DNA of 64,000 nt from Candidatus Nomurabacteria bacterium (lineage in GTDB: Bacteria > Patescibacteriota > Minisyncoccia > Phycocordibacterales > UBA9973): NCBI GenBank assembly GCA_943359485.1, contig CALRHR010000002.1:24992-88991 (forward strand). Direction: 5' to 3'. The position numbers and the translations under genes were made by a program. This document shows, piece after piece, positions 26,708 through 29,616 of this stretch (position 1 is its first letter; each line of letters begins with the position of its first letter). Below the pieces are notes generated by a model. It had not been told where the DNA came from, did not search any database, and saw nothing but the letters and a program-made list of their open reading frames with translations.

Positions 26708-26734
26708 ATTTATGCCCGGAACAAAAGAAATTAA
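26708..26734 (+). repeat. 27-bp direct repeat, copy 1 (duplicate of the atpG 5' end and 8 nt upstream)
   Basis: atttatgcccggaacaaaagaaattaa is identical to 27265-27291. The copy would encode a truncated [16 protein letters not shown] peptide. Confidence 0.8.
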
Positions 26735-26771
26735 GAAGATTGAAAAAAACATAAATATATAGTAATATAAA

Positions 26772-27011
26772 GTGGTTATGAAAAAATCAATTCACAATTA
26801 TACAGCCGTATTTGAAAGAAATGAAAACAATGGCTATACTGTTACGGTTCCTTCGCTTCCTGGTCTTGTTACCGAAGGGAGGAACTTAGATGATGCTCGT
26901 AAAATGGCAACCGAAGCTATCGAGTGCTATTTAGCAGGCCTTAAAGTAGACAAGAAGCAACTTCCAGTCGAGGGAGATATTGCCAGCATCAGGCTTTCGG
27001 TATTTGCATAA
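26772..27011 (+). CDS. hicB: HicB-family antitoxin
   Basis: YTAVFERNENNGYTVTVPSLPGLVTEGRNLDDARKMATEAIECYLAG is the canonical HicB/UPF0150 N-domain. Confidence 0.8.
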   Translation: MVMKKSIHNYTAVFERNENNGYTVTVPSLPGLVTEGRNLDDARKMATEAIECYLAGLKVDKKQLPVEGDIASIRLSVFA

Positions 27012-27012
27012 T

Positions 27013-27243
27013 ATGCCTCGACTCAAGCGTCTTACCGCCAAGGATGTATGTAAAATTCTACACAGTTCTGGATTCTTTGTGCATCATACTCATGGTAGCC
27101 ATGTGCACTTACGACATCCTGAAAAATTGCATTTGCGTGTGGTCGTGCCATATCACAACCGAATTCTTGCACCAAAAACATTGAAATCAATCATTGTTCA
27201 AGCAGAATTATCCAGGGAGGAAATTAAGAATTTTTTTAATTAA
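27013..27243 (+). CDS. hicA: HicA-family mRNA interferase toxin
   Basis: MPRLKRLTAKDVCKILHSSGFFVHHTHGSHVHLRHPEKLHLRVVVPYHNRILAPKTLKSIIVQAEL is the YcfA/HicA fold with the conserved His. It starts 2 nt after the hicB stop. Confidence 0.8.
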   Translation: MPRLKRLTAKDVCKILHSSGFFVHHTHGSHVHLRHPEKLHLRVVVPYHNRILAPKTLKSIIVQAELSREEIKNFFN

Positions 27244-27268
27244 AATAAGAAAATGTTAGTATAAATTT

Positions 27269-29616
<2,348 letters not shown>

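Follow-up and report, generated by a model that had tools for sequence, protein, structure and literature searches.

An intact hicB-hicA toxin-antitoxin (TA) pair, hereafter hicBA, interrupts the ATP synthase operon between atpA and atpG in the 64,000-nucleotide (nt) stretch of Candidatus Nomurabacteria DNA analysed here (GenBank contig CALRHR010000002.1; the window). Comparison of this locus with its counterparts in related genomes leads us to conclude that hicBA, which carries its own promoter, probably occupies a long-lived, recombination-driven cassette slot of Paceibacteria, in which the 5′ end of atpG serves as the homology. Pfam calls give the gene order atpI-like, atpB, E, F, H, A, [hicBA], G, D, C. 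Both AtpG and AtpA place the host in Paceibacteria (Parcubacteria/Nomurabacteria-like Patescibacteria); window AtpG is 72-81% identical to Paceibacteria/Nomurabacteria AtpG, 81% being the best match anywhere. The features of the locus are listed below (L numbers are our labels for loci of relatives).

25192..26694, + strand: atpA (F1 alpha; PF00006, PF00306, PF02874), upstream border of the slot
26708..26734, + strand: S_L, left copy of the region around the atpG start (4 spacer nt followed by atpG nt 1-23)
26712..26762, + strand: leader open reading frame (ORF) opened by the relic atpG start codon, 16 codons by translation
26740..26768, + strand: sigma-70-like promoter of hicBA, TTGAAA (26740-26745), 17-nt spacer, TAATAT (26763-26768)
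26778..27011, + strand: hicB antitoxin, 77 amino acids (aa), PF15919
27013..27243, + strand: hicA toxin, 76 aa, PF07927
27244..27268, + strand: right-end spacer RE (AATAAGAAAATGTTAGTATAAATTT), homologous to the Bro-N-atpG intergenic sequence in L009 and L087
27265..27291, + strand: S_R, right copy of the perfect repeat and functional atpG start
27269..28177, + strand: atpG (F1 gamma), intact (PF00231, 293 bits), downstream border of the slot

The cassette lies between two copies of the atpG start

An exact search of the 64-kb window for the 27-mer ATTTATGCCCGGAACAAAAGAAATTAA gave two sites, 26708-26734 and 27265-27291, and no further copy was found there even at 3 mismatches. Chance was rejected as the origin of the repeat, the 27-mer being unique to these two sites with 0 copies expected from 100 shuffles; local alignment of S_L with S_R scored 58, whereas shuffled sequences reached 30 at most. 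The intervening 530 bp code only for hicB and hicA, have no inverted repeats at their ends and contain no transposase gene. A preliminary description of this DNA had reported an intact hicB and hicA between atpA and atpG, enclosed by perfect 27-bp direct repeats that duplicate the start of atpG. All of this is borne out, by Pfam matches and gene calls for the pair, by exact search and shuffles for the repeat, and by the 27/27 match of S_L to S_R at the atpG start. Its finer parsing needed correction: the repeat comprises 4 nt of spacer and 23 nt of atpG rather than 8 and 19, because atpG starts at 27269 and the repeat at 27265, and hicB starts at ATG 26778 rather than GTG 26772, because homologues begin MKKSIHNY.

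S_L occupies the ancestral position of atpG, its ATG lying 17 nt past the atpA stop, and the leader ORF that it opens stops 15 nt ahead of the hicB ATG. Counterparts, as leaders or in-frame fusions, were present in L090, L089, L009, L087, L171, L101, L091 and L176.

The hicBA pair and its promoter

The hicA product matched PF07927 (HicA_toxin) over the full profile (1-58 of 58), with 58.4 bits where the cut-off is 27. Its nearest solved relative is 1WHZ, with whose GGH the HGSH motif of the window protein aligns, keeping G-x-H; the motif is invariant in the 4 homologues compared, and we take its histidine to be catalytic. The ratio of non-synonymous to synonymous divergence (dN/dS) of hicA against homologues was about 0.05. 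The hicB product matched PF15919 (HicB_lk_antitox; 42.4 bits against a cut-off of 27) over profile positions 1-64 of 123 and aligned with E. coli HicB (6G1C/6G1N) over residues 8-48 of 142 only. By profile and structure alignments, a C-terminal DNA-binding domain (ribbon-helix-helix or helix-turn-helix) is not present in the 77-aa window protein, and its homologues are 75-78 aa long. This short form thus appears to be the N-terminal neutralising domain alone, which is compatible with membership in HicAB; stand-alone short HicB-like proteins exist. No named NCBIfam model was matched by the window's four Hic-like proteins, and Rfam gave no match in the insert region at E <= 1.

The two genes are co-oriented and bicistron-like, hicA beginning 1 nt after the hicB stop (27011 to 27013), and the same pairing was seen in 7 homologous loci. 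A promoter scan of the window found TTGAAA-17-TAATAT, of which the hexamers and the 17-nt spacing are invariant in the window, L089, L090, L175 and L176, while the spacer letters vary. No terminator-like site or hairpin was found in the insert between atpA and atpG. Read-through from the atp promoter, which the preliminary description expected to co-express hicBA with atpGDC, is therefore plausible, but the cassette also has a promoter of its own, which five lineages conserve. As a HicAB system the pair is ordinary; it is the behaviour of the locus that is unusual.

The atpA-atpG junction receives varied cargo in relatives

The junction was examined in two unbiased scans of Paceibacteria-like loci, one of GTDB representatives and one of JGI metagenomes. 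Overlapping atpA and atpG, or a gap of about 5-40 nt between them, is the rule among relatives. L084 (AtpG 80%), which has the same synteny as the window (asparaginase, atp, rsmI-like, mreB), has overlapping atpA and atpG and an empty site. Since contiguous atpA-atpG is the ancestral state in relatives, the hicBA segment is an insertion. No empty site of the same species was present among 5.8 billion proteins or their contigs, the nearest AtpG being 81% identical.

At least 150 bp were inserted at this junction in 13 of 51 relatives (about 25%); the largest insert, of 2.6 kb, holds TA genes and small ORFs. The junction is either empty or filled by at least 6 kinds of cargo, with PemK/MazF, nucleotidyltransferase plus HepT, and Bro-N confirmed by Pfam. 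The cargo is distributed as follows.

PemK/MazF toxins: L091, L102, L101
MntA-type nucleotidyltransferase plus HepT: L031, L101
Bro-N/DinD-like gene: L009, and L087 (the window's closest relative)
Further cargo: small membrane or unknown ORFs, and hairpins

Neither transposase, integrase or recombinase genes nor terminal inverted repeats were found in about 20 occupied atpA-atpG slots. Elsewhere in the operon, inserts occur at atpG-atpD (7 of 52) and atpD-atpC (13 of 45), and the atpF-atpH (0 of 12) and atpH-atpA (0 of 14) junctions are free of them. A search of the accessible literature returned no description of TA genes in an ATP synthase operon of the Candidate Phyla Radiation, nor of such a slot.

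Many of the non-TA atp inserts encode small, very hydrophobic proteins of 54-125 aa (L176 2753-3130, L178 1128-1391, L075, L011, L023, L062, L030 and L106), which may be subunits or assembly factors of the ATP synthase or just tolerated cargo. L101 has inserts at three consecutive atp junctions; at its atpG-atpD junction (4538-5046) lies a pair that, judged by sequence alone, resembles a DUF4258/DUF2283 toxin-antitoxin, and the same junction of L102 (5466-5828) holds a four-helix-bundle ORF. A 1.8-kb atpG-atpD insert in L075 contains an ORF (5723-6037) whose end repeats the C-terminal residues of AtpG, so that at this other atp junction it is the 3′ end of the upstream gene that has been partly duplicated. 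A conserved ORF of 261-276 aa with the motif ADPSKFSL (ORF1) and only a weak DUF7380 match recurs as the first cargo gene past atpA in L090 (2267-3097), L009 (1886-2689) and L171 (2204-2989). Its variable first ~10 residues (MSKELIQQK or MPEK...) may derive from the atpG start.

Partial copies of the atpG start recur upstream of the cargo

The duplicated atpG start of the window, termed S, recurs in different lengths and states of decay ahead of the cargo in many genomes.

Window: 27/27, leader ORF
L090: 25/25, leader MSGTKEIKIKMVI, then a stop
L009: 21/23, in-frame fusion to Bro-N
L087 and L171: decayed, in-frame fusion to Bro-N
L101: 35/40, relic running to about codon 30, broken by a 36-nt bulged hairpin
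L091: 18/21, short relic ahead of the PemK gene
L028: 32-nt relic, 109 nt ahead of the true start of atpG
L176/178: 66/75, with copies that differ like two alleles

Across genomes the copies measure about 16, 21-23, 25, 27, 40-90 and 75-84 nt. Each relic resembles the atpG of its own genome, lineage-specific codons being common to both copies. The preliminary description had taken the 27-bp repeat for a target-site duplication, an interpretation that we do not support. Copies of ~16 to ~90 nt, attached to varied cargo and accompanied by no transposase, integrase or inverted repeats, argue against both a transposase-type duplication and a classical att site. The first ~100 nt of atpG are highly conserved (major-allele frequency 0.81-0.89), and a stretch of 20 or more identical nt within -4..+45 of atpG is common to 15% of genome pairs, against 0.2% for a control segment.

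The footprint extends to protein databases, where about 25 Bro-N proteins start M[AVTP]GTK[EDAQ], which is the AtpG N-terminus (e.g. MAGTKE); more distant members of the family start MKKK... or MNESD.... The Bro-N of L171 has such an AtpG-like start and lies at atpA-atpG. That of L173 starts MKNKTLEK, lies between aminoacyl-tRNA synthetase and VTT-domain genes and is accompanied by no repeat. Given this unrelated N-terminus and the missing repeat, we rejected the idea of Bro-N as a mobile gene that copies the starts of downstream genes. Start duplication as a rule at all atp junctions was also rejected, with 0 cases in 11 inserts at atpG-atpD and atpD-atpC.

Bulged GC-rich hairpins (e.g. CCCCAGTAGCAGAAATCAGAATTTCGCTACGGGG) lie inside relic atpG starts at differing offsets, or right before atpG (L101 2163-2198, L091 ~824-853, L028, L110 and L171), those of L101 and L091 being homologous. 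They may represent a small mobile hairpin element or a cassette-end structure.

The association of hicBA with the atp operon is old

Just 27 relatives of window HicA could be detected in the protein collection searched. Seven hicBA lineages were examined for genomic context, and in five of them hicBA lies at atpA-atpG: the window, L089 (HicA 89%), L175 (86%), L090 (83%) and L176-178 (75%). It lies in the rpsO-NYN-pnp operon in L088 (HicA 82%) and at yet another site in L179 (HicA 70%). The hicBA copies are ~19-22% apart at the nucleotide level. Their synonymous divergence (dS, about 1.5, with a range of 1.1-1.7) is as saturated as that of atpA/atpG in the same genome pairs, which indicates that the hicBA-atp association is old. 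With dN of 0.06-0.15 and dN/dS of about 0.04-0.1, the genes are under purifying selection. Dating of the insertion by synonymous divergence was uninformative, dS being saturated for cargo and host genes alike.

A recent insertion of hicBA, as first suggested for this locus, is therefore not supported, the same subfamily being present at the same junction in L089, L090, L175 and L176-178 with saturated dS. The comparison of relatives that the preliminary description had proposed, with empty junctions as its expectation, gave a divided answer: the junction is empty in most, including L084, which upholds an insertion, but hicBA is also there in four other lineages. Its presence in all relatives, named there as evidence for an ancient fixed arrangement, was found only by half, in several distant relatives and not in the two closest (L087 and L084). 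The distribution is thus patchy, L087 (Bro-N) and L084 (empty) being nearer to the window by AtpG than L090 or L089.

A plasmid or phage origin was considered and set aside: PLSDB and INPHARED gave no DNA match, and IMG/VR held no close relatives of HicA or Bro-N. In L088 (~4611-4647), hicBA and a 127-aa ORF between rpsO-NYN and pnp are followed by ATAATTTTATGGCAGGTACAAGCGGAAATTA, which resembles the spacer plus atpG start (short ORF MAGTSGNYYSKY, then a stop). The match is borderline (score 36 against shuffle maxima of 28-33), and the relic may be the footprint of a cassette that departed from an atp slot.

Junction swaps and the probable history of the window's copy

The sequences next to S have changed partners. 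Spacer X (ending in GAACCTAATTT) lies ahead of Bro-N in L009 and L171 and ahead of atpG in L175, and spacer RE (AAAATGYTARKATAAWTTT) lies ahead of atpG in the window, L009 and L087 and ahead of ORF1 in L090. These changes of context upstream of S point to crossovers inside S. Empty-site relatives lack RE, and so do L089 and L090 between hicA and atpG. We rejected the idea that RE is a recurrent upstream motif or a promoter in this genome, since it occurs once in the window and was not flagged by the promoter scan.

In L176/178, a divergent 75-84-nt copy of the atpG 5′ end lies upstream of hicBA. Behind hicA come an atpA 3′ relic (KKAIEDFKISFVK, then a stop), about 79% identical to the resident atpA end, another small ORF and the real atpG. 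Such tandem alleles (atpA 3′ - slot - atpG 5′) appear to be the signature of single-crossover (Campbell-type) integration of a circularised related fragment.

For the window itself, the 4 bases before the -35 hexamer are AAGA, as in L089 and L175; they are ATCA in L090 and L176. In L175 AAGA belongs to the last Bro-N codons (...AAATTAAAAGATTGAAAAAAG), and in L090 ATCA is the end of ORF1; L089 shares the window's left junction sequence. The left junction of the window (S_L ... AAGA, then TTGAAA) therefore looks like S joined to a junction between the Bro-N 3′ end and the hicBA promoter, and the join would cross an A-rich microhomology (AAAAGAAATTAA) shared by atpG codons 4-8 and the Lys-rich Bro-N 3′ end. 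The right junction (RE) is of the type found after Bro-N in L087 and L009, not of the type found after hicA in L089 and L090. Together these junctions suggest that a Bro-N (+hicBA) array was likely pruned or recombined to hicBA alone. The 27/27 identity, against the decayed copies of L087 and L089, implies either a comparatively late recombination or conversion between S copies or nucleotide constraint on the initiation region. What the preliminary description called a recent recombination event may thus survive as a late event between S copies, but not as a fresh arrival of hicBA.

A proposed recombination slot and its alternatives

These data allow us to propose how the slot would work. Incoming or rearranging DNA would join within S, so that the cargo comes to lie between a partial atpG start on its upstream side and an intact atpG on its downstream side, as in an insertion-duplication. 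The upstream copy would keep the atpA-coupled start codon, either fused to the cargo or opening a short leader ORF, and later S x S and microhomology events could exchange, reorder or prune the cargo. In the window, hicBA would be transcribed from its own promoter and by atp read-through, on into atpGDC, and ribosomes coupled to the end of atpA would read the leader of 16 codons and stop beside hicB. HicA would act as an mRNA interferase held by HicB, a labile neutraliser. A crossover between S_L and S_R would leave a perfectly restored empty site, with a predicted excision-circle junction of ...GTATAAATTT-S-GAAGATTGAAA.... Loss of the cassette would free the toxin, so that the TA pair would penalise clean excision, and this penalty may explain the persistence and dominance of TA modules as cargo. 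Both the circle intermediate and transformation are steps that we infer; competence (comEC, pili) and homologous-recombination genes are common in Patescibacteria (PMC12455944).

Several considerations weigh against this account. The recombination steps come from comparing sequences rather than from direct observation, and all loci are metagenome contigs. Saturation of dS masks the distinction between vertical inheritance with differential loss and old horizontal exchange. Inserts at other atp junctions lack the start duplication, and the pattern may in part be simple tolerance of insertion. The left-junction sequences are short and A/T-rich, and the junction could alternatively be parsed as S_L extending to about +30 with a 2-nt deletion and no Bro-N remnant. 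Finally, a perfect 27/27 repeat is surprising for an old relic and needs an added assumption, where a young event fits equally.

The alternative that survives best is a recent horizontal insertion-duplication. Here a circle with hicBA and one S, from S x S excision or from a circularised fragment of a related genome, would have entered by a single homologous crossover in the atpG 5′ end. Identical donor and recipient copies of S would yield the 27/27 match, S is conserved enough for cross-lineage pairing, and the L176/178 architecture is the expected product. The hicBA of L088 in the rpsO-pnp operon, followed by its atpG-start-like relic, and the competence common in the phylum (PMC12455944) are consistent with it as well. 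Against this, neither a circle junction nor an empty site was observed, the L088 relic is borderline (36 against 28-33), and hicBA is at least 19% distant in nucleotides from all known copies, with no recent donor identified. The 27 nt are presumably also at the lower limit for efficient RecA-type recombination; Shen and Huang are said to have placed the E. coli minimum at 23-27 bp in 1986. We consider this explanation unlikely, if still the one to be taken most seriously beside the long-lived slot.

Less probable again, and in our view quite doubtful, is that the cassette is the remnant of a site-specific integrative element that used the atpG start as attachment core, brought along a copy of that start by which atpG was restored, and has since lost its integrase through internal deletions, leaving the TA pair between attL and attR. 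An identical core at both ends is typical of att sites (27/27 in the window, 25/25 in L090), the left boundary at -4 recurs in the window and L009, and Bro-N ('prophage antirepressor-like') and TA genes are typical of phages and islands. However, about 20 occupied slots contain no integrase or recombinase and no insert larger than 2.6 kb, the duplicated segment varies up to about 90 nt and sometimes consists of divergent alleles, and no close relatives of HicA or Bro-N were found among the viral contigs of IMG/VR.

A recent de novo insertion of hicBA, with the 27-bp repeat as a target-site duplication made by a transposase-like enzyme in trans, is very unlikely. It would account for perfect repeats that exactly bracket the cargo, for the two closest relatives without hicBA at the site, and for the left boundary at -4, which the repeat of L009 has in common with that of the window. 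It does not account for 530 bp devoid of terminal inverted repeats and transposase, for four further, deeply diverged lineages with this cassette at this junction (L089 sharing even the left junction), for duplicated atpG segments of ~16 to ~90 nt rather than of fixed length, or for a right end shared with Bro-N inserts; nor was a copy found in plasmid, phage or IMG/VR collections.

An assembly artefact, whether through a mis-join or through collapse or duplication of a repeat, which the preliminary description had raised and which the metagenomic source of the sequence invites, has a negligible probability, because two assemblies agree across the region, the repeat is shorter than the final k-mers of both assemblers (which we take to be 141, from the name of the 'k141' contig, and 31 for Logan), every ORF is intact and orthologous architectures are present in independent samples. 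The assemblies in question are the ENA MEGAHIT contig ERZ27280328:k141_2273450 (102 kb), which contains the window, and a Logan contig (run ERR5863119), identical over 7,754 nt including both repeats, though they may share reads.

Other Hic-like genes and repeats in the window

A second Hic-like pair lies at 20466-20926, upstream of the asparaginase gene. Its hicB′ (UPF0150, 84 aa) is intact, and a frameshift at a T6 run near 20780 divides its hicA′, with the N-terminal part (ISFKNLVIKFKDLGFF) and the C-terminal part in different frames; this looks like a decayed toxin next to a surviving antitoxin. A 32-nt direct repeat (30/32; 20423-20454 and 22628-22659; AATTTGCAT..CTTTCTTCTTTATATTATTAT) brackets the 2.2-kb hicB′-hicA′-asparaginase segment. 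The copy at 22628-22659 coincides with the promoter-like sequence (TTTGCA-18-TATTAT) immediately before the atp operon, and a AATTTGCAT-like motif also precedes atpB in L084. The repeat may be another duplicated 5′ region of a downstream unit around an insert.

A 73-nt repeat, 92% identical between 29625-29697 and 32723-32795 and rich in CTAGG and AAGCCT units, spans the intergenic region and first 6 codons of atpC and of holB (MNSKQL and MISKHL). It flanks no insertion, since synteny there is conserved in L084, where a CTAGG-rich element also lies behind mreB.

Implications of a proposed exchangeable slot in an essential operon

Patescibacteria have tiny, streamlined genomes and are often called poor in defence and TA systems. 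In this setting, one boundary in the most conserved energy operon repeatedly hosts HicBA, MazF/PemK, MntA-HepT and a Bro-N/DinD-like gene, and such a clade-wide slot is of more interest than a single fresh insertion flanked by a target-site duplication, a reading that was itself partly wrong. If the recombination slot is real, it would provide uncultivated, naturally competent bacteria with a simple route of gene gain, exchange and loss independent of any dedicated enzyme, and would show how an essential gene can have its translation start taken over by cargo and still stay intact. It would also be a concrete case of TA 'addiction' stabilising a site that could be emptied cleanly. For annotation, 'decapitated' gene starts and chimeric N-termini such as the Bro-N MAGTKE are to be read with caution, as likely footprints of the slot process.

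Taken further, and only tentatively, the conserved first ~25-90 nt of atpG may be a natural attachment site, independent of any dedicated recombinase, for integron-like, exchangeable cassettes in an essential operon. Cargo would then be mostly of TA or defence type, and cassettes would excise as circles with a single atpG start, pass between cells through natural transformation and re-enter by one homologous crossover. Each cassette would capture the atpA-coupled translation start of atpG, TA cargo would block clean excision, and the window would be one snapshot of the system.

Comparison with known systems

The hicBA pair resembles known HicAB systems (E. coli 6G1C/6G1N; the T. thermophilus HicA-like 1WHZ) in its full HicA domain with G-x-H, its HicB neutralising domain, its adjacent, co-oriented genes 1 nt apart and its strong purifying selection. 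It differs in having the antitoxin gene first, in sitting in an essential operon rather than an island or plasmid, and in its 77-aa HicB, which lacks the C-terminal DNA-binding domain, so that HicB-operator autoregulation would not be expected. HicAB has been noted in groundwater ultra-small prokaryotes (PMC9938205).

As in integron arrays, a single chromosomal site gains, reorders and loses small, often promoter-poor cassettes, TA cassettes stabilise arrays, and a circular cassette intermediate is plausible. In contrast to integrons, the sequence that recurs at the slot is a piece of a housekeeping gene, and hicBA has its own promoter. Membership in this class was rejected: there is no IntI, attI or attC, and the repeats derive from atpG and are not attC-like.

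Campbell-type insertion-duplication is known from laboratory mutagenesis of naturally transformable bacteria, for example Streptococcus pneumoniae, mainly as an engineered outcome. The slot shares its topology of homologous segment, insert and homologous segment, a duplication as long as the segment carried, and, in L176/178, the presence of two alleles; here, however, the process would be natural, recurrent and based on homologies of about 25-90 nt. Integrative elements that restore their target gene, such as e14 in icd and tRNA-targeting islands, likewise leave a duplicated gene end beside the insert and an intact target, but they encode an integrase, and none was found in any occupied atpA-atpG slot.

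Of the known systems, the behaviour of the locus comes nearest to the 'minimal mobile elements' of Neisseria, with integron arrays and laboratory insertion-duplication as analogies. Minimal mobile elements (Saunders & Snyder 2002), as defined in PMC8627216, also offer a site between two conserved genes whose content varies by lineage, with no mobility genes. Their exchange is presumed to proceed by transformation and homologous recombination of the flanks. At the atp slot, the foreign-allele relics of the atpA 3′ and atpG 5′ ends in L176/178 and the swapped contexts upstream of S may point to such exchange, against a background of saturated dS. TA and restriction-type cargo is typical of minimal mobile elements. 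The atp slot departs from them in lying within one essential operon, in its partially duplicated flank with a start codon captured by cargo, and in the relics of both flanks (atpA 3′, atpG 5′) inside atp arrays; we know of no minimal mobile element described with such partial flank duplications. What sets the atp slot apart from minimal mobile elements, integron arrays and laboratory insertion-duplication is its place inside an essential operon, with a piece of a housekeeping gene as its joint and with cargo that captures that gene's start codon.

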